The position numbers and the translations under genes are program-made. DNA of 64,000 nt from Candidatus Caldarchaeum subterraneum (GTDB lineage: Archaea > Thermoproteota > Nitrososphaeria_A > Caldarchaeales > Caldarchaeaceae): NCBI GenBank assembly GCA_000270325.1, contig BA000048.1, forward strand, positions 515,709-579,708, written 5' to 3'. Below the pieces are notes generated by a model, which searched no databases, was not told the origin of the DNA, and saw only the letters and a program-made list of their open reading frames with translations. Below, one piece after another: positions 322 to 50,333 of this stretch. The stretch's first letter is position 1, and each line of letters starts with the position of its first letter.

Positions 322-693
322 TCACGGACTCGCTTTGCTGGCAACTTCTTTCAGCATCTTTAAAGCCTCCAACAGCATCTCCCGCGTCTCCCTCGAATCA
401 CGTGCAACAACCTCCAGAATCTCCAGACTCCTCTTGCTCTGCTCCGTCAAAACCTCCAAAACCTTCGTAACCCTCTCAACAAAAGCATCCATCCTGCTAA
501 CGAAATCCCTAAACTCCGACCGATAATCCCTAAACTCGCTACGAAAATCTCTGAACTCATTCCGGAAATCATTGAACTCACCTCTGAAATCGCGAAACTC
601 ACCCCTAAAGTCACGGAACTCATTTCTAAAATCTCTGAATTCTCCCCTGTAGTCGCGGAATTCCTCCCAGTATGTGAAGAATATTGCCTGCAT
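322..693 (-). CDS. Heptad-repeat protein (eight imperfect RDFRxEF repeats followed by a predicted helical tail), function unknown
   Basis: ORF table protein ...EFRDYRGEFRDFRNEFRDFRGEFRDFRGEFNDFRNEFRDFRSEFRDYRSEFRDF...; the reading frame stays open upstream to 823. Confidence 0.5.
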   Translation of the reverse strand: MQAIFFTYWEEFRDYRGEFRDFRNEFRDFRGEFRDFRGEFNDFRNEFRDFRSEFRDYRSEFRDFVSRMDAFVERVTKVLEVLTEQSKRSLEILEVVARDSRETREMLLEALKMLKEVASKASP

Positions 694-1003
694 GGCTCCG
701 AAGCCTTCCTGGAGCTCGTCGGCCAGTTTGTTGTAGCGTATTTGGAAGTGTTTGAGGTTTGGCTTGGGCCGTGTCTCGGCTATCTCTATTTTTTTTAATC
801 TTGGCCGGGGGAGGCGGGGTCTTTAAAGCTTCCATGAATCTGTTCAGCGTCTCTTCATCGCCTTGTGCAAAGATTGTAACGGTTCCGTCTTTTTCGTTCC
901 TCACGTAGCCAGCTAGCTCAAGCTCCTGCCCAAGCTCCAGCACATGGCGTCTGTAGCCGACGCGCTGCACTCTTCCCACGACCTTCATCAGGTAGGCCTT
1001 CAA
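626..1003 (-). CDS. acyP: Acylphosphatase with an apparent +1 frameshift in an A8/T8 run (789-796); as written the C-terminus is out of frame
   Basis: N-terminal 70 aa carry both acylphosphatase signatures (VVGRVQRVGYRRHV; GYVRNEKDGTVTIFAQG); the conserved C-terminal part (IEIAETRPKPNLKHFQIRY) is encoded in the adjacent frame immediately after the homopolymer. Confidence 0.7.
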   Translation of the reverse strand: MKAYLMKVVGRVQRVGYRRHVLELGQELELAGYVRNEKDGTVTIFAQGDEETLNRFMEALKTPPPPAKIKKNRDSRDTAQAKPQTLPNTLQQTGRRAPGRLRSHAGNILHILGGIPRLQGRIQRF

Positions 1004-2533: not shown

Positions 2534-2926
2534 ATGGCTCGAAGGGATGAGGTGGAGGTGTTGAGGCGTAGGGGTGTGGAGTTTCTTGAGATGGCTGAGA
2601 AAGCGTTGGCAGACAAGAAGGTTGACTTCATGCTGGAGCAGGCTGCCCAGCTCTACCTCAAGTCCGCTCTTCTCAAACTAGTCGGAGAATATAGCAGGAC
2701 TCATAGCTTGAGGCGTCTGGTGTGGGAGCTGGCCGAGGCTTCGAGAGACGATGAGCTGAGAAAGTTTGGAGAAGAGAGGAGAAGTGTTCTCTCGAGTTTG
2801 GAGGATGTCTATATTATGGCGAGGTATTTTCCGAAGGAATATTCCGAGATGGATGCGGCGGAGTTTTTAGAAGTTGTCCGCGAGCTGTTTAGGCTGGTCG
2901 GCAGGGTGGCGGGTTTCCCAGCATGA
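2534..2926 (+). CDS. HEPN-domain protein (HEPN/MNT module)
   Basis: THSLRRL and C-terminal YIMARYFP motifs; overlaps the following nucleotidyltransferase gene by 4 nt. Confidence 0.65.
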   Translation: MARRDEVEVLRRRGVEFLEMAEKALADKKVDFMLEQAAQLYLKSALLKLVGEYSRTHSLRRLVWELAEASRDDELRKFGEERRSVLSSLEDVYIMARYFPKEYSEMDAAEFLEVVRELFRLVGRVAGFPA

Positions 2927-3258
2927 TAGAGACTGCGCGTAGGAGGGCTGAGATGGTTAGGCGCTGGAGAGAATTTGTCGGGATGTTGGCTGAGGCTGTT
3001 AGAAAGGTTTTGGGGGATGCGGATGTGTATGTGTTTGGCAGCGTTGTCACGGGAGAGTGTGTGGCGTCGAGCGATGTGGATGTCTTGGTTGTCTCGGACA
3101 GGGTTCCCGAGTCGATGCTTGAACGCGGTGCCTTGAAGGTGGAGATTGAAGATGCCGCGGGGCTTCCCGTCTACCACCCCTTCGAGCTTCACTTCGTCAA
3201 GCCCGATGAGGCCATGCACTATTTCAAGAAAATTGGGCGAAACATTTTGAGGGTTTAG
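2923..3258 (+). CDS. Minimal nucleotidyltransferase (MNT) partner of HEPN
   Basis: VFGSVVTGECVASSDVDVLVV = GS...DxD nucleotidyltransferase motif. Confidence 0.7.
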   Translation: MIETARRRAEMVRRWREFVGMLAEAVRKVLGDADVYVFGSVVTGECVASSDVDVLVVSDRVPESMLERGALKVEIEDAAGLPVYHPFELHFVKPDEAMHYFKKIGRNILRV

Positions 3259-4447: not shown

Positions 4448-7400
4448 TTATTTCTTTGGTGGTGCTGCTGGGTAGATGCCGAGGCGGCGTCCTCTCCAGC
4501 GGATGTATTCGCTGACGATGACGACTACGACGATGACCAGCAGTATGAGGCCGATGATCAGCGCGAGGAACGTGGCGAGGGTCATGGGTACGCCGAACAG
4601 TATGGTGTAGAGGTCGAGGACGATTGTTGCGCTTCTAACGCCTCTAGCTACGTTGGCTGAGTTGCTGAACTGTTCGTAGGATGCTCTTACTGAGTAGTCT
4701 GCGCCCACGACTTTGGAGAAGACCGCCGAACCGCTGGCGTCTGTGGCCGCTGTGGCTATTGTTGTTCCTCCTCTCACCAGCTCAACAATGGCGCCCTGTA
4801 TCGGCTGTCCTGCAGCGCCCTTGACAATTACGGCGATGTCGTATATGCCTGCCTGTATGGTTGCCGATGTCCGGGAGGCGGTGAACCTTACACGGTCTCC
4901 GCCGATAGTTGTGCCATCCTTGGAAACCTCTATCTGGTATTCGTTGTCGAGCGGTACTTGTCCGATGATGACGACGCCTTGGCTGTCTGTTGAGCCTACT
5001 TGTTGTCCGCCGAACCTTATGGCTGCGCCTGCCACGGGTCTACCGTCGAAGTCGACTACTGTCAGGGTTACGTCGTCTACGGGTATGACTATGCTGCCTC
5101 TGCTCTGTAGGCCTGCCGGCGTGTCTCTTACCGCTGCTCTCGCTGTTGTTCCGTATGGGCTGGTCCATTCGACGGTGAAGTCATAGGTTCTGCCGTCGGG
5201 TACGCGGAGGATTGTGAATATGCTGTCGGGTCTTAGCTGTATGTCCTGTTCTCTGACTAGGTTGGGTGAGACGCTTACTCTAGCGCCTGCCACGGGTCTG
5301 CCCTGTCTGTCGACGACGTTGAAGCTGAGGTCTCTGAGTGCGAGGACGACTGTGCCCTCAACGGTTCCGACGTTGGTTCTGCTGACGTCGAAGGTTCTTC
5401 TGCCGACTTCTTCACCGTTTGCGTCGGGCCAGAGGGCGACGATGTCGTAGGAGCTTCTGGCGAGGCGTTTGGCTTCGAAGATGGCTCCTTGTCCACGTAT
5501 GATGAAGTCGTCGGGCAGTGCTAGGCTGGGTGCGCTGAAGACGTATGCTGGGTCGGCTGGTCTCTGTGCGTCGCCGTAGACGAATCTTATCCTGAGGTCG
5601 AAGATGCGTGTGATGACGTCGAAGCTTCTGCCCCAGCCTGCCGGCGGGCAGCTGGCGAGTGCCTCTAGGACTCCTGCGGTGTAGTTGTATGAGCCATCTC
5701 CTGCATGTCTACAGACATCGGCTCGGAACCATCCGTCTCCCGTTGGCCAGGGTCCTGCTTCGGCTGTGTATGCGAAGCCGAGAGGTATGTCTGGTTTCTG
5801 TGTTTCCTGTGTGGTTTCGTCGTCTCTGCTGTCATATGCTATGGGCCATCTGGCGAAGCTGTTGACTGGCCATGTGGGTTCTCCGTTGGCGCCCTGTCCG
5901 AGGTAGAGGACTCTCTGGATGAAGACTCCTCCGGGCTTTCTAATGGGCATGGGCACTATTCTGCCGTCGGGTCCTGCATAGCTCCATGCGGCTGATTTGC
6001 CTGTCTGTGCGTCGATTATCTGGTAGAAGGCTCCGGGCAGTGGCCTCCCGTTGAAGTCGGTGATTCTGGCCGAGACGTTCTGGAACTCGAACATCTTGAT
6101 GAAGGGTCTGTGTGCTCTGTTGTCTGGGTCGTTGCTCACTACCGTGACCGTTGCGGTGCGTGCGACGCCTTCATATGGTCTGCCGTAGCCCATGTACTGT
6201 ATGCCTAGGTCTACGCCAGGCACCTGTAGCTGGTCGCCGACGTGTAGGTTTACGGGCTGTCCTGTGAGTGGGTCGATGGCTTGGCTGACCCAGTTTCTCC
6301 AGTAGTTGCTGGTTGTTCCTCTGTTGGGGTTGTCTGCGCCTGCTTGTCCTGTGCCGTCGTTGTACCATATGCTTGGTGGCGGTGAGACCTCGTCTATGAC
6401 GAGGGTGCTGCCGCCCCATATGACTGTCGAGGGTGTGTCTCCGCTGGTGACCGTTACGAGTCCAACTGGTTTGCCGGAGATGCATATGTTGACTGTCTTG
6501 TCGCCGACTGTGATGGTTCCCGCTGTTGTTACGGCGTCGATGGGTTTCGGTGCGAATGTTGCGCCAAGAGGTGGCACTATTCTACCTTTGACGATGTATC
6601 CTAGGAGCGGCCCGCAATCGTAGCTGCCGAGCTCGTAGTCGCCTACCTGCCAGAAGACGGGGATGTCGACGTCTGTGGCGTTGAGCTTGATGGCGACGAC
6701 TTTGCTGCCTGGTGTTGGTGTGGCTGTCCATGTCCGTGTCAACGCGTAGCCAGGTATCGGCTGGAACTGTCCTGTTCCTGTTGTTCCTCTGTAGAATGTG
6801 ATGTCGAAGGGCGGGTGTCCGAACAGCATCCACGCGTCTGGGAATTGGGCGGGTATTCTCCAGACCAGTTCATAGTGGTCGCGCTGCCATGCTCCGTTGT
6901 TATATTTTGGCGATGATGGGTCGATGGGTAGCTGGTCGCTCCATACGCTGATGCGGTACTGTATTCTGCTGTTTTCCTGGTTGGTGAGATGCGGGTGGCG
7001 TCGATCGTAGCCGGTCGGGACTGGGTTGTATGGCCATCCGTCAATCATTCTGCCGTCTTCATAGCTTGGGTAGGGTATGTCCCATGAGCGTGTTACATCG
7101 TCGTAGACCCATCTGCCGGCTGAAGAGTCGAATACCAGGTCCCAGTCGCTCTTGGTGAAGCGCTCTGATGTCGGTAGCCATGGGAGTGTGAGCTGGCCTG
7201 TTGTCCACTTGGCTGCTCCACGTGTCTCGGGTACGGCTGTGTATGTCCATGTTCTGCGGGCGTGGTCGACTGTTATCCTGCCTGGGAAGACTGTATTGCC
7301 GTCTGTTACGTTGAGCCACCAGATTCTTGCGTAGAGGTCTTTGACGGGTCGGTCTTTGTTGGCGCTTATGGCGAGGACGAATGTCACATCGGCGATGGCT

Positions 7401-10400
7401 ACTTTGTCAACCGAGTAGCCTCTCTTGGTGAGGTTGAAGGCGTCTTTGTAGACGATGCTGCTGTTGAGGTACCAGTAAACAGTCAACGTGTAGTTAACAA
7501 CGTTTGTCCCGAGGATGTTCTCCATGGCTTCCTGTGTCGGGTAGAGGAGTGTGAGGTTGCCGTCACGTCCTGTCTTGTAGAGAACTGAGGAGGAGCGATC
7601 CACTGTACCGCTATCGTCGTAGTATACGTCGAGCTGTACGACTGCGTATGGTATGGGTCTTGCGAGGTCTTCGTCTTTGAGGTTGAGGGTTATGAAGCCT
7701 ACCGGTATGGGTACTGTTACGACTTCTTTCTCGAACACCAGTGTTGTGGGTCTTGTCGGAACCTCGATGTACCTCTTTCCTTTGAATGGTGTTGATATCT
7801 CTTCGACTGCTCCGGCTGCGACCGCTTGCTCCCATCTCCATCTCTGCTGGTTCCAGAGGCCTTCATTGCCTACGACTGTGAAGTTGTGGGTGGGCCACTT
7901 GCCATTGGCTGTTTCGTTGACCGCTGGGTTGAAGAACTCTCTTATGAGGAAGCTGTCTCCTGGCCTAACGTCTCCTCCTGGGCTGGTTAGCGGTCCCTTC
8001 TGCGTTGTCAGCCATCCGCTGCCTGTTAGCCCTGCTTTGTCGTAGAATCTTGCCCATGGCTGTTCGCCTCTGGTGAACTCGAGCGGGTAGACGTAGCTGT
8101 AGAAGGTGAGGTCTTGTTTGCGGTAGGTGCCGTTCCACCAGATGTTGCTGCTGTGCTGGCTGTCTGCTTTGAGCCAAGTGGTTAGGAGGGTGTCTTCGGT
8201 CCATTTGCTGACGAAGAGCGATGAGAAGACTCCGTCTTCGGGTATGAACATCTCCATGTTGACGCCGTTGTCGTTGACTATGTGGTAGGTGGCGTTGCCT
8301 ATGCGGCGTGCTTCGTTGAGGTAGTCGAAGTCGCCGTCGACGATGCGCTGTTTGAAGGTGTGGGCCCATGTCAGCAGGTCTATCCTGACGGGTCCGCATG
8401 TCTTGTAGAGTGTTGCGTTGCCGATTGGGTTGAGGTTGGGGTCGGTGACGAATTCACCGTTCCATGTCATGTAGACTCTGAGGACGACTCTGTCATTGAC
8501 CTGGCCTGCAGGAGTCTTTCTGATGCTCGGTGGGCTGCTGTGGCTTGTCCAGTCAATCTTGATCTCATAGTCGACGGGCACGGTTCTGCCTGGCCACTTG
8601 CTGTTGCCTGGTGTCTGTTGCGTCTCGGGGTCTCCTGTTGTTACTGTTGTTACTGTTATGTTGTAGAGTGCGCTGGGCATCTTGTAGAAGACGTAGCGGA
8701 CGTCTCCGTAGGTCTTGAGGCCGTTTGACCTGGATATGCCGCCGAAGAAGTGGTCGATTCTGTAGCGGAAGAACTGGCTGAATGCGAGGGTTGTGTTGAA
8801 TTTGTCAGTGTTGGTGTCGCCTGTTGGGTCCATGGTTTCGAGGAAGTATAGGCGGCTGCCTGTTAGCGGGTGTACACCGACCCATGTGAGGGTGATGTTG
8901 AGCCTGGGTATCCTGTTGTCTTGGTTGTAGTCCCATGTTGTGAATATGAAGTCGTTGATGAGGGCTGTGAGTTTGATGGGTGAGTCGATGTTGCTGTCGA
9001 CGGTGAATGTTAGGCTTCCGTCGGGGTTGAGCGGCAGTGTGTCGTCGCCTATTCTAGCGTCTGTGAACTTGACCCATACACCCTTCCACCATACGCCGTC
9101 GATTGTGTATTGTCCTCCTGCTAGGTAGCCGAAGTCGAGGGCGCCTGTGCTGTCGAGCTGTGTTACGTAGGGTGTTGCGGGTGATGGTGGCACTACTTTG
9201 ACGAATGCTTCTCTGGAGAGTGGGCTGTTTTCGCAGTCGACGAAGACGAGCTTGACTTTGTAGATGCGGAGGACGAGGTCCTCCATGATGGTGTGGGTTA
9301 GTTTGTCGACGGTGGCTTCTCCGACGGGTGTGCCGTCGAAGGTGACGGTGACCATGTATGCGAGGTCTTCGGGCAGCTGGTAGAATACTGCCCATCCTTC
9401 GCCGTGCTGGTCATAGCTCCACTGTAGGCTGCCTGTGGATGGGAAGAAGTCGGGTATCAGGCTGGCTCCTGTCTTGGTTATTGGTGGTCCGTTGCCGCGC
9501 TGTAGGGTGATGGCTGTGTTGGCGGCTGGAGCCGGGTTGCCGAGGTTGTCAACAAGCCTATAGGCAAGATCGTGAACATTAGCCGTAATGTAGACGAGAC
9601 CCGCTCTTGCCAACGCTATGTCAGGAGCCTTGTGCGGCGCAAGACTCTGCAGTATTACTACCTGTCTCTTTGTGGCGTTGAGTATCGCGAATGTACCTGA
9701 CTGAGGCTGGCCTGAGAAGAGCATTCCTCCGACGAAATCATTGTAGGTGAACGCTGGATCCAATGTCTGTATGTCTGTGTTGTTTGATGATACAAGTGTC
9801 CTGATTGTCTGTGAACCCGGTGGCCCTGGCCATATCTCGACCTCGGCTGCACCGGTCTCGCCGGTAGTAGTTACGTTGAACCTTCTGATGGATGTGCTGT
9901 CTATTACCCCGTCTGGTCCGATGTCCTGCCAACCTGCGAGAGCGTAGGAAATGTTTCCGACTATCGGCTGGTTGGTGGCTGCGTCATGGTATTTGATGCT
10001 AGCTATAACGCCGCTGAAGGTGAAGGGCGTTCTTATGAAGCCGCCATGTGTTGCGTTTTCAACTATGTCTACTCGTAGGTCTACTCCAGGCGGATAGTTG
10101 ACGAATATGTCGAAGGTGCCTGTTAGCGGGTTGTAGTTCTGCAACCGCATTCCTATGGGGGTGTTTGAGGAGATCATCAGTGTAACCGGTCCACGGATTG
10201 GCCTCGGTGTTCCGAGGGGTCCTCGGCTGAGGGTTACGGTGACCTCGTTGTGTATCTTGATGAGGACTGTGTTGTTTCCTAGAACTACGTTCGGGACTAT
10301 CCATCCGTTGTATGTGGTTGTGTTGGTGGCTGCTATGGCGTAGGGGTTGCGTACTCTTACGCTGTCGACGAGGACTGCGGAGCCGCCGTATCCGTTTCTT

Positions 10401-12238
10401 GCTCCGCCTTTCCACTTGACCTGTATCTCGAAGCCGCCCCACCGCGGGTCATCGCTGAGCTGTCTTGTCTTCATGTAGGTGATTTCGGGAATGAGGGCGC
10501 TCCAGTTCATGCCCGCGTTTATCCATGGTCCCTGCCAGCTTCCGCCCCACGCCTGCTCAAAGTATCCGCCTGGTCTCCATGCTGGAGAGACGTCGTCTGC
10601 TGGGTTGAAGAAGTAGCTGGCGTTGAGGCTTCCTCTGAGGCCCCAGTTGGTTCCGTTGGGGAAACGGGCGAATTTGCTGTACTGGCCTAGGTATCCAGGC
10701 CACTTGTGCGGGTCGTTGGTGCAGCCGTCGCTGCCCGTGGTGTGTATGCTGTGGGCCAGGTAGTAGGGTACATCAGCTGATGTCTTGAAGTTGAGGGTGA
10801 CCTCTGCCCCGACCATCTTATCGCCTATCCATGGATGCTGGATGGCAAGGTCAGCGTCCTGCACACAGAACCGAGCATAAAACACCGTGTTATTCTCAAA
10901 GTTCGCTATCGATGGCCCAACGGTCTCAACATTCGCAGTAGTGTCAGTGCCCTCCCATGTTGGCAGCAAGGGCCTAGGTGGGTCTATATACACTGTCTCG
11001 TTAAGTACGAGGCTGAACGGCCCAGCGGGAACACCTGTGATGCCTCCCTGCGTAATCGTTGGGTTGACCGATGGGTTTGATGGATAGGCTCCGAACAGAG
11101 GCCTTATCTTGCCGGTGGCAGGGTCGGTAGCATACTCGGGAGCATTTGGACCACCTGTTTGGTTGTATTCGTTTCCTACGTAGAAGGTCTGGTTGACGAG
11201 TACGGTCTCCCACCAGACACGCTTGGTGGCGTTGAGATGCGGAGCCTCGATAAAACCGTTGTTATCTTCAGGGTCAGGAATACCTCCTTCGAATGGTTCT
11301 CTGGTGCCGAGGTTGATGCTCTGCAGCGGTATTGGGACGAGGCGGTTCTGTGCAAACTTGCCTGAACCCACACCAGCGGAGCGTGGATAGATTTCACGAG
11401 TGTATCTGCTCTGGCCATCATCTCCGGTTATAGCCGCCTGTATCAGTGATTGTGTGGAGCTGGCGTCTGTGTGGTCGGTGTCGTATATGAATATCGTCGC
11501 ATAAGTCAACACATCATTGGTGGCGTACCATGTGTGTTCGTGGAAGAGCTTGAAGATGTAGGCCGCGCGAGCCAACCAAGCCCTCTGAGGATCGTTGTGG
11601 TTAATCTGGAAAGTTATTGGACCGGATGCATAGTTTACGTTGTCCACGGGCCCTGACCCGAGAGGCGGAAAGATGTTCCAGTTAAATGGACCACCGTGGG
11701 TATCTTCTATGCCGTCATCGTTTATAGTGCTGTTGAAAGCTGAGAACCCGAACTTGCTTAGGAAGCTCGGTGTGGGGTTGACTGTTAGCCAGTAGACTAT
11801 GATTCCTCGGAATGGGTTGCCCTCGCCGATACACTCACCCTGATAGCTCTTCGCCTTCACAATAATGGTAACGTTCTCCCAGCCAGCAGGCCACGAAACC
11901 CTGATGAAACCAGTGCCGTTAGGACTGCCCGCTCTAATCGGACCCTCCCAACTATCCAAAGGCGCAGTACTTGCTCCACTTGGGTTCTTGAACTTATACA
12001 GCTCAACACAGACATTCGTCACATTATACCTATCAGCAAAGCCAACACCAGTCGGCTGCACAGGAGGAGCACCAGCTACATAAGGTGCACCATCCCACGA
12101 AGCCGTCACTATTTTGAGCCATGCGGTGTAGTTCGGCTGCGCAAACGCCGGCGTGACAATCGCTGCTCCAAGGAAAGCCGTCGGAAGCGCTAGCAGCAAA
12201 GCTAGCAAAACTGCCTGACTTTTTCCAATCATCAACAC
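4448..12238 (-). CDS. Giant (2596 aa) secreted, membrane-anchored surface protein; S-layer or adhesin candidate
   Basis: Uninterrupted 7.8 kb ORF; N-terminal signal peptide, dense N-x-S/T sequons, C-terminal repeats of the ...DGRPVAGA... type (carboxypeptidase-regulatory-like), C-terminal TM helix plus basic tail. Confidence 0.8.
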   Translation of the reverse strand: MLMIGKSQAVLLALLLALPTAFLGAAIVTPAFAQPNYTAWLKIVTASWDGAPYVAGAPPVQPTGVGFADRYNVTNVCVELYKFKNPSGASTAPLDSWEGPIRAGSPNGTGFIRVSWPAGWENVTIIVKAKSYQGECIGEGNPFRGIIVYWLTVNPTPSFLSKFGFSAFNSTINDDGIEDTHGGPFNWNIFPPLGSGPVDNVNYASGPITFQINHNDPQRAWLARAAYIFKLFHEHTWYATNDVLTYATIFIYDTDHTDASSTQSLIQAAITGDDGQSRYTREIYPRSAGVGSGKFAQNRLVPIPLQSINLGTREPFEGGIPDPEDNNGFIEAPHLNATKRVWWETVLVNQTFYVGNEYNQTGGPNAPEYATDPATGKIRPLFGAYPSNPSVNPTITQGGITGVPAGPFSLVLNETVYIDPPRPLLPTWEGTDTTANVETVGPSIANFENNTVFYARFCVQDADLAIQHPWIGDKMVGAEVTLNFKTSADVPYYLAHSIHTTGSDGCTNDPHKWPGYLGQYSKFARFPNGTNWGLRGSLNASYFFNPADDVSPAWRPGGYFEQAWGGSWQGPWINAGMNWSALIPEITYMKTRQLSDDPRWGGFEIQVKWKGGARNGYGGSAVLVDSVRVRNPYAIAATNTTTYNGWIVPNVVLGNNTVLIKIHNEVTVTLSRGPLGTPRPIRGPVTLMISSNTPIGMRLQNYNPLTGTFDIFVNYPPGVDLRVDIVENATHGGFIRTPFTFSGVIASIKYHDAATNQPIVGNISYALAGWQDIGPDGVIDSTSIRRFNVTTTGETGAAEVEIWPGPPGSQTIRTLVSSNNTDIQTLDPAFTYNDFVGGMLFSGQPQSGTFAILNATKRQVVILQSLAPHKAPDIALARAGLVYITANVHDLAYRLVDNLGNPAPAANTAITLQRGNGPPITKTGASLIPDFFPSTGSLQWSYDQHGEGWAVFYQLPEDLAYMVTVTFDGTPVGEATVDKLTHTIMEDLVLRIYKVKLVFVDCENSPLSREAFVKVVPPSPATPYVTQLDSTGALDFGYLAGGQYTIDGVWWKGVWVKFTDARIGDDTLPLNPDGSLTFTVDSNIDSPIKLTALINDFIFTTWDYNQDNRIPRLNITLTWVGVHPLTGSRLYFLETMDPTGDTNTDKFNTTLAFSQFFRYRIDHFFGGISRSNGLKTYGDVRYVFYKMPSALYNITVTTVTTGDPETQQTPGNSKWPGRTVPVDYEIKIDWTSHSSPPSIRKTPAGQVNDRVVLRVYMTWNGEFVTDPNLNPIGNATLYKTCGPVRIDLLTWAHTFKQRIVDGDFDYLNEARRIGNATYHIVNDNGVNMEMFIPEDGVFSSLFVSKWTEDTLLTTWLKADSQHSSNIWWNGTYRKQDLTFYSYVYPLEFTRGEQPWARFYDKAGLTGSGWLTTQKGPLTSPGGDVRPGDSFLIREFFNPAVNETANGKWPTHNFTVVGNEGLWNQQRWRWEQAVAAGAVEEISTPFKGKRYIEVPTRPTTLVFEKEVVTVPIPVGFITLNLKDEDLARPIPYAVVQLDVYYDDSGTVDRSSSVLYKTGRDGNLTLLYPTQEAMENILGTNVVNYTLTVYWYLNSSIVYKDAFNLTKRGYSVDKVAIADVTFVLAISANKDRPVKDLYARIWWLNVTDGNTVFPGRITVDHARRTWTYTAVPETRGAAKWTTGQLTLPWLPTSERFTKSDWDLVFDSSAGRWVYDDVTRSWDIPYPSYEDGRMIDGWPYNPVPTGYDRRHPHLTNQENSRIQYRISVWSDQLPIDPSSPKYNNGAWQRDHYELVWRIPAQFPDAWMLFGHPPFDITFYRGTTGTGQFQPIPGYALTRTWTATPTPGSKVVAIKLNATDVDIPVFWQVGDYELGSYDCGPLLGYIVKGRIVPPLGATFAPKPIDAVTTAGTITVGDKTVNICISGKPVGLVTVTSGDTPSTVIWGGSTLVIDEVSPPPSIWYNDGTGQAGADNPNRGTTSNYWRNWVSQAIDPLTGQPVNLHVGDQLQVPGVDLGIQYMGYGRPYEGVARTATVTVVSNDPDNRAHRPFIKMFEFQNVSARITDFNGRPLPGAFYQIIDAQTGKSAAWSYAGPDGRIVPMPIRKPGGVFIQRVLYLGQGANGEPTWPVNSFARWPIAYDSRDDETTQETQKPDIPLGFAYTAEAGPWPTGDGWFRADVCRHAGDGSYNYTAGVLEALASCPPAGWGRSFDVITRIFDLRIRFVYGDAQRPADPAYVFSAPSLALPDDFIIRGQGAIFEAKRLARSSYDIVALWPDANGEEVGRRTFDVSRTNVGTVEGTVVLALRDLSFNVVDRQGRPVAGARVSVSPNLVREQDIQLRPDSIFTILRVPDGRTYDFTVEWTSPYGTTARAAVRDTPAGLQSRGSIVIPVDDVTLTVVDFDGRPVAGAAIRFGGQQVGSTDSQGVVIIGQVPLDNEYQIEVSKDGTTIGGDRVRFTASRTSATIQAGIYDIAVIVKGAAGQPIQGAIVELVRGGTTIATAATDASGSAVFSKVVGADYSVRASYEQFSNSANVARGVRSATIVLDLYTILFGVPMTLATFLALIIGLILLVIVVVVIVSEYIRWRGRRLGIYPAAPPKK

Positions 12239-13669: not shown

Positions 13670-14442
13670 ATCGTAAAACCATTCGGTCTGACATATAAAC
13701 CTTAGACTCGAATCGATCTAAAGCCCTCTGAAGGCTCTAAGAGAGTCTAGAGAGCCTGTTATTATAGTTCTTGATTCTACTGGTGTTAGGCTGGTTCGTG
13801 GCTTGAGAGAAAATATGGTAAGAGGAGGTGCGTCAAGATACACGACGCGAAGACTGGGGAGACACTGGTGCTGAGATGTCTGGGATAAATATACTCCGAC
13901 CATTCCTTCTATGTCCTGAGGTAGCTAAGGTCGTGTTCCCTTATAGTTCTGACTCCCTGCTCCTGCCTAGTTACCCTTAGGTTCAAACCCTTCCAGCTAT
14001 CGTTAGAGAGCTCCAACTCAATGCCGCCAGCCCTAAACCCTATCTTGGACCAATCGCTGCTCCTCCTTAGCACCCTCAGTGTTGCCAAAAAGTCCTCCTA
14101 ATCCATACCTAGAAGCTCACACATCTCCCTGCAAACTCTTTCGATCTCCTCGACCGTAGTCATGAACCCAATCCCTTAACAGTATCCTCGTGGTCTCTCT
14201 CTTAAAATCTTTCAGGAGCATAGATCCAAAAACAATGCAATATTAAACGATGCCCAAACAATCTGGGTATACAACTTAGACGCTCGTTATATCCTCCCTA
14301 AGCCTTGTCAGCTCCTCGTCACATCGTCTAAACACTGGAAAAAGCGAGGCAACTCCTAGCAGATCATACAGCCAAAGGAATTAGGCCACAAGGCAAGTAT
14401 AGTTTAAAACTTATATATGCATGCACATGTATATGCGTAGGT

Positions 14443-14667
14443 ATGACAAAGGTTATTTCGCTCTCGGATGAAGCCTATGCAGCTCTTAAAAGAATAAAGA
14501 GGGAGGGGGAGTCCTTTTCTGATGTAGTATTACGCCTCGTGGGTCAGGCGAAGTATAGGCCCTTGTCAGAGTTTGCAGGTAGATGGGCTGGCGACGACAT
14601 AGACAAAGTGTTTGAAGAAATTCTGCGTGAAAGGGAAAGGGCCGAGTCGAGAGAGGTATCCATTTAG
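14443..14667 (+). CDS. vapB: Antitoxin (VapB-like) of a second VapBC pair
   Basis: 74-aa ORF MTKVISLSDEAYAALKRIKREGESFSDVVLRLV; its stop abuts the start of the following PIN gene. Confidence 0.55.
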   Translation: MTKVISLSDEAYAALKRIKREGESFSDVVLRLVGQAKYRPLSEFAGRWAGDDIDKVFEEILRERERAESREVSI

Positions 14668-18481: not shown

Positions 18482-18596
18482 AGCCCGGTCGTCTAGCGGC
18501 CAAACCTGGTCAGAAGAGGGCCATGGATCTCGGGCTCTGGATCACTCCTCTGTGAGGAGAACCCCGAGGACGCCGGTTCGAATCCGGCCCGGGCTA
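18482..18596 (+). tRNA. tRNA-Gln (anticodon CUG) with two 21-nt introns, one in the D-arm and one at the anticodon loop
   Basis: Exons align base-for-base with the intron-less tRNA-Gln(UUG) at 37525-37597 (AGCCCGG-UC-GUCU-AGCGGCCAA...GGAU); anticodon stem TCGGG/CCCGA, loop CUCUGG; T-arm GCCGG-TTCGAAT-CCGGC; discriminator A. Confidence 0.65.
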
Positions 18597-21318: not shown

Positions 21319-21420
21319 TTCGTTCCTATGGGAGATGCGGTGTATATAGGAGTTGCCCCATGCAAGCGTCTGTCAAACACGATTCAGCGCTCGCGAGGGA
21401 TTCGGAATATCATTTAAGTT

Positions 21421-30621: not shown

Positions 30622-31902
30622 ATGCTTTTAACTTGGAGTGGGAGGAAAAGTCTCGTGAACATAAAAGCGGTATCAACAACTCTGGTTGTGGCGGTGCTGG
30701 TCATCGCCGTCGTAGCGGGGGTAGGTGTTTACTTAGCTATCCAGCAGCTTTCCGCCCCAACAGTCGCCGAGAAACCACTCGTCATAGGCTTTTCCATATC
30801 CATCTCAGGAGACTTCGCAGTCCCCGGCCGCAAACAACTCGAAGGCATCGAGCTCTGGAAAGACTGGATAAACTCCAAAGGCGGCATATATGTCAAGGAT
30901 CAGAACAAATACTACAAAGTCGAGCTGAAGTATTATGACGATAAATCCAGCAAGGACGAGGTTATACGGCTGTATGAGAAGCTGATAAACGAGGACAAGG
31001 TTGACATCCTCTTGTCACCGTATTCAAGCACTCTCGCGTTAACGGCCGCGGGGATAACTGAGAAATATGGAAGGCTGATGGTTGTGGTGGGCGCAAACTC
31101 TGACACAATCTTCAAACAAGGATACAAGAACATAGTCGGAACCTACACACCTGCAAGCAAGATGCTGACACAGGCGATAGACATTCTTCTCGAGAAGGTG
31201 CAGAATCCGTCGGTCGCCATCATCTTCAAAGATGACGCGTTCGCGAAATCCGTTGCAGAAGGCGCTAAAGCTTACGCGGAGCAGAAAGGAGTCAATGTTG
31301 TGGCTTTCGAGATGTATCCACGCGACGCAAAAGACCTTTCACCCATTCTCACCAAGATTAAGGGCTTGAACGTTGACGCTATCCTAGGAGGAGGCCATTA
31401 CGAGGACGAGGTTCTTCTCGTCAGGCAGGCGAAGGAGCTGGGCATAAACGTGAAGCTGATGAGCCTACTCGTAAGCCCGTCGCTTCCAGCGTTTTATGAC
31501 GCCCTCAAAGAAACATCCGAAGGTATTCTCGCGCCCTCGCACTGGGAGCCTCAGACAAAACCCAAGATAACCTACGGCCCAACAATCGACGAGTTCATGA
31601 CACAGTTTAGACAGAAATGGAACAGCGAGCCATCCTATCACTCGGCAGCAGCTTTCGCCGCAGGCCTCTACATCACAGCAGCCATAGAGAAAGCAGGGAC
31701 TCTCGACAACGCAAAACTCAGAGCAGCGTTCAACGATTTAGATATAACCACTTTCTACGGCCGGTTGAAGATAGACCCTGCTACAGGTAACCAAGTGGGG
31801 CATGAACTTGTCCTTCTACAGTGGCAAGGCGGAAAGAAACAGGTCGTCTGGCCCCGCGAAGTCGCTACAGCTCAACTGATTTTCCCGAAGCCGTCTTGGT
31901 AA
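30622..31902 (+). CDS. ABC transporter substrate-binding protein (branched-chain amino acid / LivJ-like) with N-terminal membrane anchor
   Basis: N-terminal TM segment then periplasmic-binding-protein-like sequence; followed by two permeases. Confidence 0.65.
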   Translation: MLLTWSGRKSLVNIKAVSTTLVVAVLVIAVVAGVGVYLAIQQLSAPTVAEKPLVIGFSISISGDFAVPGRKQLEGIELWKDWINSKGGIYVKDQNKYYKVELKYYDDKSSKDEVIRLYEKLINEDKVDILLSPYSSTLALTAAGITEKYGRLMVVVGANSDTIFKQGYKNIVGTYTPASKMLTQAIDILLEKVQNPSVAIIFKDDAFAKSVAEGAKAYAEQKGVNVVAFEMYPRDAKDLSPILTKIKGLNVDAILGGGHYEDEVLLVRQAKELGINVKLMSLLVSPSLPAFYDALKETSEGILAPSHWEPQTKPKITYGPTIDEFMTQFRQKWNSEPSYHSAAAFAAGLYITAAIEKAGTLDNAKLRAAFNDLDITTFYGRLKIDPATGNQVGHELVLLQWQGGKKQVVWPREVATAQLIFPKPSW

Positions 31903-32757
31903 ATGTTCAACCCCGAAATTTTTTTTCAAGCTCTTGTTAACGGCCTCCTGATGGGGGCGGTCTACGGAATAGCAGCCGTGGGTCTCTCGCTCATATGGGG
32001 GGTTCTAGGAGTAGTCAACCTAGCCCACGGCTCCTTCATCATACTCGCCGCATACATAGCGTATGTCTTCTTCTCCGCCGCTGGTGCTCCGCCACTTCTC
32101 ACAGCACCCATAGCGGTGGCCATGGGCTTTGCCGTGGGATATCTTCTCTACAAAGGCGTCGGAAGAAAAGTGGTCACACTAGACCCATCCACCTCACTCC
32201 TCTTCTTCTTCGGCCTCTCGCTCCTGATCAGCAACTCCATCCTCAACATATGGGGCCCCGACGTAAGGGGAATCCCATGGCTCATCCAAAGCCTTGAATT
32301 AGGGGGAACAAGGATACCCATAGCACGGCTCATAGCCCTCGTCTCAACAATAATCTCCTTCATGCTCCTATACATGCTGCTTCAACACACATACTATGGC
32401 AAAGCCATCAGAGCAGTCGTCGCCAACCGCGTTGGAGCCGCTTCAGTTGGAATAGATGTTGACAACGTCTTCGCCATAAGCATGGGAATAGCACTTGGCG
32501 TCACCTTCTTCTCAGGCACCATGATATCACTGGTCAACCCGTTCACACCGTCCTCCGGCGACGGCTACCTCATGTACTCCTTCGCCTCAGTGGTCCTCGG
32601 CGGAGTCGGGAACATCATAGGAACACTTTTGGCAGGCATATTCATGGGCCTTGTCGAAAGCCTCGTCGGCGTATACTTCAGCCAGAGCATAAGCCCAGCG
32701 GTGGCTTTCATAATACTCGTCATAGTCATCATGGTGCGTTACCGTGGAGGCAGGTAG
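31903..32757 (+). CDS. livH: Branched-chain amino acid ABC transporter permease (LivH-like)
   Basis: Polytopic membrane protein, typical LivH size and position. Confidence 0.7.
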   Translation: MFNPEIFFQALVNGLLMGAVYGIAAVGLSLIWGVLGVVNLAHGSFIILAAYIAYVFFSAAGAPPLLTAPIAVAMGFAVGYLLYKGVGRKVVTLDPSTSLLFFFGLSLLISNSILNIWGPDVRGIPWLIQSLELGGTRIPIARLIALVSTIISFMLLYMLLQHTYYGKAIRAVVANRVGAASVGIDVDNVFAISMGIALGVTFFSGTMISLVNPFTPSSGDGYLMYSFASVVLGGVGNIIGTLLAGIFMGLVESLVGVYFSQSISPAVAFIILVIVIMVRYRGGR

Positions 32758-35276: not shown

Positions 35277-35663
35277 TTGTCGGCAGATGATGCTGAGCTA
35301 ATGAAGGCGCGGGCAATAGCTTTTCTACGCAACGCTGATAGGCTGATGGAGGAACATGAATGGGACTTGGCGATGTTCAACTTAGAACAATATTGTCAAC
35401 TTATGCTGAAGTATAAGCTGCTAGTTCAGCGTGGAATCTATCCCAAGACACATTCTCTTAGAACGCTCATCCGCATTCTCGGCGAAAACAACCCTGGGCT
35501 ACTCACTATGGTTGAGGATAGCTCAAAGCTTCACTATGTCGCGAGGCTTGAGGAAGCCTACATCGTCTCACGGTATATGCCTTACAGGTTTGAGGAGAAG
35601 GAGGTCAGGGATGTTTACCGGTTTGTGGTAGAGGTGTTTAAGCCGTTTGTCGAGAAGCTATGA
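35277..35663 (+). CDS. HEPN-domain protein (second HEPN/MNT module)
   Basis: THSLRTL and YIVSRYMP motifs, paralogous to 2534..2926. Confidence 0.65.
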   Translation: MSADDAELMKARAIAFLRNADRLMEEHEWDLAMFNLEQYCQLMLKYKLLVQRGIYPKTHSLRTLIRILGENNPGLLTMVEDSSKLHYVARLEEAYIVSRYMPYRFEEKEVRDVYRFVVEVFKPFVEKL

Positions 35664-35967
35664 GGAGAGGCTGCTCGAGTACATGAGGCGCTATAGAGAG
35701 GTGGGCGCAGAGGTTAAACGTATCCTCAGGAAAATCGACCCAGACGTTAGAGTGTTTGTCTTCGGCTCGGTTGTCAGAGGCAGATACACGGCCGCGAGCG
35801 ACATAGACATCCTCGTGCTGACGGATGATTTGTCGAAAAAGTATGAGATGATGGTGGAGGTTTACAGAAGTGTTGAGGCTCCCGTGGAGCTTCACATCAC
35901 AACTCCCCAGAAATATCGGAGCTGGTATAGTAGGTTCATACCGTTGGACGAGCTTGTCGAAATTTAG
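35647..35967 (+). CDS. Minimal nucleotidyltransferase (MNT)
   Basis: VFGSVVRGRYTAASDIDILVL = GS...DxD motif; overlaps HEPN gene. Confidence 0.7.
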   Translation: MSRSYEERLLEYMRRYREVGAEVKRILRKIDPDVRVFVFGSVVRGRYTAASDIDILVLTDDLSKKYEMMVEVYRSVEAPVELHITTPQKYRSWYSRFIPLDELVEI

Positions 35968-49105: not shown

Positions 49106-50333
49106 GCGGCTTCACCCCCATGACGCTTAGCTGGCTCGGCTCGACGCCGCGGGACACGAGCAAATCTCTCCGTCCACATAGTTCTCCGACGCTTTTCACG
49201 CCGACCTTGTCGAGGATGAGCTTCAGCTCCTCTGTCCATCCGTTCACCATGTTCACAACCCATTTGGTCGCCGTGTCAAGGGAAAGAAGCTTAACGGGGT
49301 TGTCGTCGATTTTGTTGGTTAACACGGCGGGGCAGAAGCCGAGGTGGCACTTATGCACCATGATACAGCCCATCGCAATCAACGAAGCTGTGCCAAGCGA
49401 GACAAGGTCCGCGCCCAGCGCTATCAGCTTCGCGGTGTCCTCCGCGCTGCTCACACGACCAGCAGCAACCACGGAGAACCCTTCACGCAAACCCTCGCGT
49501 CTAAGCATCTCATCAACCACGGGAACAGCTATCTCGACAGGCAGCCCAACATTATTCCTCACAACCGCGGGCGCCGCACCCGTCCCCGCACCCTGACCAT
49601 CCAAGATAATTCCATCCGCACCCATCCGCGCAACACCGCAGGCGATGTAGCCGATGTAGTTCGTCACACCGACCTTGACGAAAACAGGCTTGCCAGTGGC
49701 TTCCTTCAGAGCCATAATCCGTTGGCCAAGGTCCTCGATGGAGTAGATGTCATGGTGGGGTGCTGGAGAGATGGCGTCGACGCCCACGGGTATGCGCCGT
49801 GTCTCGGAGATGAGGCGCGACACCTTTACTCCCGGAAGGTGGCCTCCTATGCCAGGCTTCGCACCCTGCCCAATCTTGATAACAATACCCAGCCCCGTCA
49901 TCAACACGTCGATGTCGACGCCGAAGCGTGCAGAAGCCCACTGCACAGTAATTCTCCTACATTTTCTCACCTCGGGGTGAAGACCTCCTTCACCCGTGCC
50001 CGTGAGTATCCCCGTCAAATCCGCTGCACGGGCGAGGGCTATGTTGGGGACGCCGCTGAGGGCTCCGAAGCTCATGTCGCCGAGGTAGATGGGTGTGGTG
50101 AGGGTTATCTCCCCGCCGGCCATGGAAACGGATGCATCGACACCCGCTACCTGTTTAACAGTCTCCCTTTCATCGTCTTCAAGCTCGGCCTTGAACACCA
50201 GCCTGTCGAGGAGACGGCGTGAAGAATGCTTGGCCCTGTCCCACACCCAAACAGGCTCACCGAACCGGGCCAGCTGCCTGATATGCTCAATCCTCGTCCT
50301 GTTCCAGAACTCGGGCCCCTCCTGCCTCGGCAC
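49098..50333 (-). CDS. Glutamate synthase FMN-binding (GltB-type) domain protein
   Basis: [18 protein letters not shown] and [18 protein letters not shown] signature motifs. Confidence 0.7.

Follow-up and report, generated by a model that had tools for sequence, protein, structure and literature searches.

An extra adenine in a homopolymer splits an acylphosphatase/coiled-coil fusion gene in the composite genome of Candidatus Caldarchaeum subterraneum and is probably a sequencing over-call

Stand-alone acylphosphatases, such as those of S. solfataricus (AcP, PDB 2BJD/1Y9O) and Pyrococcus horikoshii (AcP, 1W2I), are proteins of about 90–100 aa. An acylphosphatase-fold domain is also found at the N-terminus of HypF (PDB 1GXT, 3VTH, 4G9I), a protein of hydrogenase maturation in which it is followed by Zn-finger, YrdC, and Kae1-like domains. 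The gene that we analysed in Candidatus Caldarchaeum subterraneum shares with the stand-alone enzymes the fold, 34–40% of identical residues, and the catalytic Arg and Asn, but the corrected protein reaches 226 aa because it carries a C-terminal helix of 130 residues. Its likeness to HypF is seen both by profile (E = 8.5e-17 to 1.8e-8) and by fold, yet the partner of the domain is here a coiled coil alone, and the corrected protein scores 50.7 against TIGR00143, for which the cut-off is 466.

The deposited copy of this gene is split at a run of A's, for which there are also described parallels. The characteristic error of the 454 platform is a miscalled length of long homopolymers, which leaves split genes in the annotation. 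The present case resembles such artefacts in that a single-base change in a run of 7–8 bases is the sole difference from independent assemblies, in a genome that comes largely from GS20 sequencing; it differs from them in that the neighbouring 15 kb show no further discrepancy. The other parallel is with programmed frameshifting and slippage systems, in which an A-rich homopolymer likewise joins two overlapping frames that encode one protein (examples of recoding at A-runs are the −1 frameshift of S. solfataricus fucA1, bacterial dnaX, and slippage in IS elements). The orthologues in those systems keep the out-of-frame arrangement, whereas here the other genotypes of the organism and its relatives are in frame.

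The gene occupies positions 322..1003 on the reverse strand of the window, i.e., of the whole stretch of 64 kb that was analysed. It consists of 226 codons and a stop, read from a TTG start at 1003, plus one extra base, and it encodes the acylphosphatase/coiled-coil fusion. The forward strand has T8 at 789..796, hence A8 on the coding (−) strand; the window contains only one other homopolymer of at least 8 bases, T8 at 31919–31926. Read on the coding strand, the sequence is ...GCC AAG ATT AAA AAA AAT AGA GAT AGC..., the eight A's being positions 796–789. The upstream frame crosses the run as ATT AAA AAA AAT and the downstream frame as AAA AAA ATA; both are open around the site, and one of the eight A's is supernumerary.

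As deposited, ORF 626..1003 (−) encodes 125 aa from the TTG start, and its match to the Pfam Acylphosphatase profile (PF00708) stops at position 70 (4–70/85, 75.9 bits). Removing one A extends the match to the end of the profile (4–85/85, 87.1 bits, with a cut-off of 22.5). The corrected frame then reads ...PPPAKIKKIEIAETRPKPNLKHFQIRYNKLADELQEGFGAMQ... and runs past the xEFRDFR heptads to its first stop at 322–324; the junction peptide of the full-length product is ...AKIKKIEIAETR.... These results bear out the core of the first-pass annotation of this DNA, which had described an acylphosphatase ORF broken at the A8 run, a canonical acylphosphatase C-terminus once an A is removed, and a restored frame that continues through a heptad-repeat protein. 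The tail that follows the run in the A8 frame (NRDSRDTAQ...GRIQRF plus stop, 626..790 (−) in the ORF translation) has 54 codons, ending at the stop 626–628, and results from translating the acylphosphatase C-terminus, the linker, and the first heptads in the wrong frame. Because the A8 reading drops the last strands of the acylphosphatase fold, it is not expected to give a working enzyme.

The acylphosphatase domain comprises residues 1–91 (730..1003 (−), broken after codon 71) and is recognised by PF00708, by a PDB profile search, and by an AF2 model. The best matches of the profile search are the structures of the S. solfataricus AcP (2bjd/1y9o, E = 3e-19). The AF2 model has a mean pLDDT of 80.5, with values of 83–91 in this domain, and lies within 1.1–1.3 Å rmsd of 1w2i, 8jfs, and 2bjd over 80 residues. 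Foldseek matches it to 1w2i, 8jfs, 4oj3, and 2bjd with target TM-scores of 0.82–0.85, and the beta-alpha-beta-beta-alpha-beta order of the ferredoxin-like fold is present. The catalytic Arg (R18, in GYR) and Asn (N36, in VRN) are invariant in 71 family members. In the loop of the first signature, for which the reference pattern is V-x-G-x-V-Q-G-V-x-F-R with the catalytic Arg, G10, V12, Q13, V15, G16, and R18 are invariant, and the Gly after the Gln is replaced by Arg or Lys (V-Q-R-V-G-Y-R-R). The loop is V-Q-G-V-G-F-R in the S. solfataricus AcP and V-Q-R-V-G-(Y/F)-R-R in the archaeal fusion family; the extra Arg beside the phosphate cradle may alter substrate preference. The second signature, G-(F/Y/W)-(V/A)-x-N-x(2,3)-G-x-V with the catalytic Asn, is found as G32-Y-V-R-N36-E-K-D-G40-T-V, with G32, N36, and G40 invariant. 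All of the best 25 NCBIfam acylphosphatase equivalog models score below their cut-offs of 86–131 (top score 69.1 bits, against 119 for NF011009). Hydrolysis of acyl phosphates (EC 3.6.1.7) is predicted from the conserved catalytic residues.

The domain is followed by a linker, ELQEGFGAMQ (688..717 (−)), that contains Met 693 and is more strongly conserved than anything else outside the enzyme domain. Among 23 sequences, its residues E96, L97, Q98, G100, F101, G102, and M104 do not vary, and among 71 they are nearly invariant; the motif is present in nearly all of 77 genomic copies. Beyond it, 16 heptads follow in a single register from residue 113. The first eight (499..666 (−)) have the form x-E-F-R-D-(F/Y)-R, with Phe/Tyr at both a and d and Glu/Arg flanking them; their number varies widely among relatives, from a few to more than 10. 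The other eight, in the same register, form a C-terminal helix with aliphatic cores and a (D/E)S(R/K)ETREML motif (325..498 (−), stop at 322–324), in which S203, E205, T206, R207, and L210 are invariant in the family alignment. AF2 models one continuous helix of about 130 residues (88–219 of the 221-aa form, 93–224 of the 226-aa form), with pLDDT values of about 60–70 at its start and 79–89 over the rest.

Phenylalanine zippers are the closest described counterpart of this helix, and the dimerisation domain of APS is an example (PMC4634320). The family profile has a weak match to PDB 2guv and 2gus (E = 1.2e-3 and 2.6e-3), the 2guv entry having 5 chains. We take these structures to be variants of Lpp-56 that were engineered as phenylalanine zippers (Liu et al. 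2006). The archaeal protein shares with the zippers (2GUV/2GUS, APS) the Phe residues at both core positions of the heptads, but has an aromatic core in the first 8 of its 16 heptads alone. We give roughly even odds to the helix self-associating into a parallel coiled coil, probably with 3 to 5 strands. The first half of the coiled coil would have an all-aromatic (Phe/Tyr) core, and several acylphosphatase domains, catalytically competent by prediction, would be displayed at one end of a rod of about 19 nm. If the aromatic heptads are a natural phenylalanine zipper, the protein would be a modestly interesting target for structural biology and enzymology.

We compared the locus with seven independent assemblies of the same organism (n=7, L001–L007, from Logan DRR000358, DRR163687, DRR101362, DRR101363, DRR101364, and DRR101366, and from ENA ERZ1669417). 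All seven are 99.1–99.9% identical to positions 1–1072 of the window and have A7 at the run; A8 is present in none of these assembled consensus sequences. Over 1071 bases, two of them (L001 and L006) show no mismatch to the window and a single gap, which falls inside the A-run. The A8 run is thus found in the deposited reference alone. Two proteins on record, P0122 (226 aa) and P0002 (221 aa, from an internal ATG), agree with the corrected translation at every residue, and these are encoded in all seven assemblies. The first-pass annotation had left open whether the repeat protein was fused downstream of the acylphosphatase; in all seven conspecific assemblies the two form one ORF. Exact 30-mers with A7, A8, or A9 gave 0 matches in JGI metagenome contigs, which makes this collection uninformative on allele frequency.

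The contigs from DRR000358 match the window without mismatch over 2,904 bases and still have A7. One of them (L087, DRR000358_705) reads CCCC at window position 1058, where the window, another contig (L088), and L001 read CCC; the discrepancy lies in a tRNA T-arm, 8 bases from the end of the contig. This noise and the mismatch-free contigs are consistent with DRR000358 being pyrosequencing data from the same source. A literature search on DRR000358, DRR101362, DRR163687, and ERZ1669417 returned nothing relevant on platform or sample.

The intact fusion is also what relatives encode. A search with the corrected protein retrieved 822 homologues (E <= 1e-3); the best 120 of these cover 71–100% of the query, most of them about 100%, are mostly annotated as 'acylphosphatase', and come from Caldarchaeum, Nitrososphaerota, and related MAGs. 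A scan of genomes, using one per GTDB species, identified 79 loci in Caldarchaeales, Nitrososphaeria (including Nitrosocaldus), Bathyarchaeia, Brockarchaeota, Geothermarchaeota, and other Thermoproteota. About 65 of the 77 genomic copies have the acylphosphatase domain, the ELQEGFGAMQ linker, and the EFRDYR heptads in one ORF of 170–300 aa. The N-terminus is conserved in relatives (M/L-K-A-x-x-x-(K/R)-V-x-G-R-V-Q), and the TTG start is common to L008 and L010. The first-pass annotation had proposed comparing the run length in relatives. Among 12 of them, the run is present only in L008, the species-representative MAG of C. subterraneum (88% identical), which reads AAG ATC AAA AAA ATA, i.e., A7 and in frame. 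The 11 others have unrelated codons at this position (e.g., GTG AAA TCG GTC or CTG AGA ATC GAG), and these relatives encode single-ORF fusions.

When the C-terminal 135 residues were searched against 1.84 billion representatives, the full-length matches were acylphosphatase fusions. The other matches were proteins of 400–1100 aa that aligned to the repeat part alone. Nine repeat-only matches were sampled with Pfam: eight were generic coiled-coil or unannotated proteins, and one (P0126) was an acylphosphatase–heptad–archease fusion. We treat the non-fusion matches as presumably compositional. The family thus defined, with an acylphosphatase domain, the ELQEGFGAMQ linker, (EFRDYRx)n, and a DSRETREML helix, occurs widely in Caldarchaeales, Nitrososphaeria, Bathyarchaeia, and related Thermoproteota. 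No account of it turned up in text searches of a paper library that combined the enzyme name with Aigarchaeota, Thaumarchaeota, or coiled-coil. The gene is an ordinary member of this uncharacterised fusion family, which is common in databases under the bare name 'acylphosphatase'. Setting aside spurious antisense ORFs within the repeats, no neighbour recurs in more than 8 of the 79 loci, and genomic context therefore gives no clue to function.

Several genomes contain at least two family copies, and some copies are disrupted. In L015 (4001–4666, Ca. Geocrenenecus huangii), an in-frame stop replaces the Arg of EFRGF. In L079 (1796–2264), there is a frameshift or deletion directly after GFGAMQS. 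In L081 (4001–4640, a Bathyarchaeia MAG), an extra G is found some 6 codons away from the position that corresponds to the A-run of the window. We considered this last case as a recurrence at the same tract and rejected it, because it is a G that was gained (ACA GGA AAT, where ACA GAA ATA is expected) and no A-run is altered. These three copies may be assembly noise or decaying paralogues.

The gene is split in the deposited record, and this is real, but a biological frameshift is unsupported: an artefact is the likelier origin of the split, and a private mutation the less likely one. We put the probability at roughly 0.7 that A8 is a one-base over-call of the homopolymer, private to the deposited composite genome and most probably a 454 GS20 error. 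The pyrosequencing of the fosmid that supplied this stretch would have over-counted the run by one A. The real gene of the organism would then have A7 and be a single ORF of 226 codons, from the TTG at 1003 to the stop at 322–324, in which recoding plays no part. The composite genome was built from 62 fosmids, of which 50 were sequenced in pools on the 454 GS20 and 12 by Sanger (Nunoura et al., PMC3082918), so that the fosmid covering this stretch may be of either kind (GS20, 50/62; Sanger, 12/62). Gaps were closed by PCR and Sanger sequencing, and re-sequencing of frameshifts was limited to those flagged by an initial BLASTP (PMC3082918). Such flagging plausibly missed this gene, because the first 70 residues of the stump match acylphosphatases of about 90 aa and the stump as a whole exceeds these in length.

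Errors of this kind are not widespread in the reference, since every homopolymer between window positions 21345 and 36396 (15 kb) agrees with independent contigs, including the other T8. This agreement speaks neither for nor against an error at 789–796. Elsewhere in the window, we examined as candidate split genes the ORF pair at G6 40489, which turned out to be separate SQS_PSY and UbiA genes, and that at T6 42452, which proved to be separate genes for an adenosine kinase and a polyprenyl synthetase.

The A8 run could instead be a real but private lesion, a slipped-strand insertion of one base in the DNA of the cloned cell or during propagation in E. coli, and the gene a recent null allele. 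We consider this unlikely, though deserving of serious attention. Slippage by a single base is frequent at A7 tracts, over 15 kb the reference has the other homopolymers right, and family copies are disrupted in other MAGs (L015, L079, L081). Moreover, the natural population is heterogeneous, and the molecules from which the composite genome was built were cloned singly (PMC3082918). Against it stand the lack of A8 in any of the seven other assemblies and the lack of a second lesion, as shown by the 0 mismatches to L001 and L006. Neither of the marks of a pseudogene, i.e., the lesion in an independent sequence or further degeneration, was found. From general knowledge, we would also give a rare deleterious allele captured in one clone a much lower prior than a 454 miscall at a run of 7–8 bases. 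Of the three explanations given in the first-pass annotation, assembly error is thus the one we favour, a recent lesion survives, and expression by +1 frameshifting fails, because A7 is in frame in all seven conspecific assemblies and the one-ORF fusion is the norm of the family.

Very improbable, in our view, is a scenario in which A8 is real and recurrent in the mat and acts as a slipped-strand ON/OFF switch, with RNA-polymerase slippage rescuing some full-length protein; the A7 of the seven assemblies is compatible with it, since consensus assemblies would hide a minority allele. Programmed recoding at A8, by +1/−2 ribosomal frameshifting or RNA-polymerase slippage, would yield both a short acylphosphatase and the full fusion. 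A run of 8 A's is a sequence type known for slippage, and the frames are open on both sides of the site. This reading is nonetheless hardly credible: the other genotypes (7/7 assemblies) and L008 have A7 in frame, the 11 other relatives that were checked lack the run at this position, and the zero-frame product has an acylphosphatase fold that is incomplete at its end. The tail of this product is conserved nowhere and is found in the reference alone. The combination of A8 with a conserved out-of-frame tail, which the first-pass annotation had named as contrary to its own reading, was looked for in orthologues and found in none. As the slippery site is not conserved and relatives need no recoding, we reject programmed frameshifting. 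Least credible of all is the presence of two separate genes, a short acylphosphatase-like one (626–1003) and a heptad-repeat protein starting at Met 693, as the first-pass annotation had suggested for the latter: both can be read as ORFs in the window, and GenBank annotates the first, but they overlap by 68 nt in different frames, no relative is split at this place, Met 693 is the invariant internal M of the ELQEGFGAMQ linker, and the resulting 123-aa product, like the 120-aa product of an ATG start in the first ORF, has no record in a collection of 15 billion sequences.

The homopolymer over-call that we prefer has consequences for the databases. The 125-aa product is recorded as BAJ50407.1/BAJ47610.1 (UniRef100_E6N5P1), annotated 'acylphosphatase', in the composite genome of Ca. 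Caldiarchaeum subterraneum (1,680,938 bp). In the same collection of 15 billion sequences, it stands alone in its 90% cluster (1 member, from 1 contig, the reference). The 'acylphosphatase' of 125 aa that is annotated and the apparent repeat ORF of 123 aa belong to one gene, as its two halves. BAJ50407.1/BAJ47610.1 is a chimera of 71 real and 54 out-of-frame residues, and its annotation needs correction; for an archaeal lineage that is much used, the reference genome has no annotation of the last 135 residues of the real protein.

Archease appears twice around this family. In a small subgroup of 358–362 aa (P0061, P0070, and P0126), the acylphosphatase domain and EFRDFR heptads are followed by archease in place of the C-terminal helix. 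In the window, a stand-alone archease gene (2051–2491 (−)) lies two genes upstream of the fusion on the same strand and adjoins a putative RNA methyltransferase of the SPOUT type (1172–2008). A functional link between the acylphosphatase family and archease or RNA processing is possible and offers a lead; the neighbourhood is not generally conserved.

The gene lies 44 nt downstream of a tRNA-Ser(UGA) (1047–1145 (−)) that has a 12-nt intron after position 38. It was missed by ARAGORN with default options and found with aragorn -i, and it is also present upstream of the L008 orthologue. The same-strain Logan contigs break inside this tRNA, and in the ENA contig (L003) homology to the window ends exactly at its 3' end (1048) and is followed by unrelated sequence. 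This suggests a strain-level rearrangement or integration at tRNA-Ser(UGA), and a comparable event at tRNA-Thr has been described in this population (PMC3293823). The intron mode of ARAGORN also identified an intron-containing tRNA-Ile(GAU) at 49840–49951 (−), missed in the default run, and the two modes conflict at another site, where the default call is tRNA-Ser(GGA) (18503–18596) and the other an intron-containing tRNA-Gln(CUG) (18482–18596 (+)).

An exact look-up of the window proteins 30622–31902 and 31903–32757 found nothing on record. A giant ORF of 2596 aa (4448–12238 (−)) has a single Pfam match above cut-off, CarboxypepD_reg (Ig-like), at residues 2468–2528; three sub-threshold Pfam matches fall in its last 210 residues, and the rest matches no family. 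A pair of genes for a HEPN protein and an MNT-type nucleotidyltransferase is found at about 35346–35967 (+), identified by Pfam on the colinear contig L089 (HEPN 14002–14319, NTP_transf_2 14303–14623), and a second putative pair of this kind, judged by eye from the ORF translations, lies at 2534–3258 (+).
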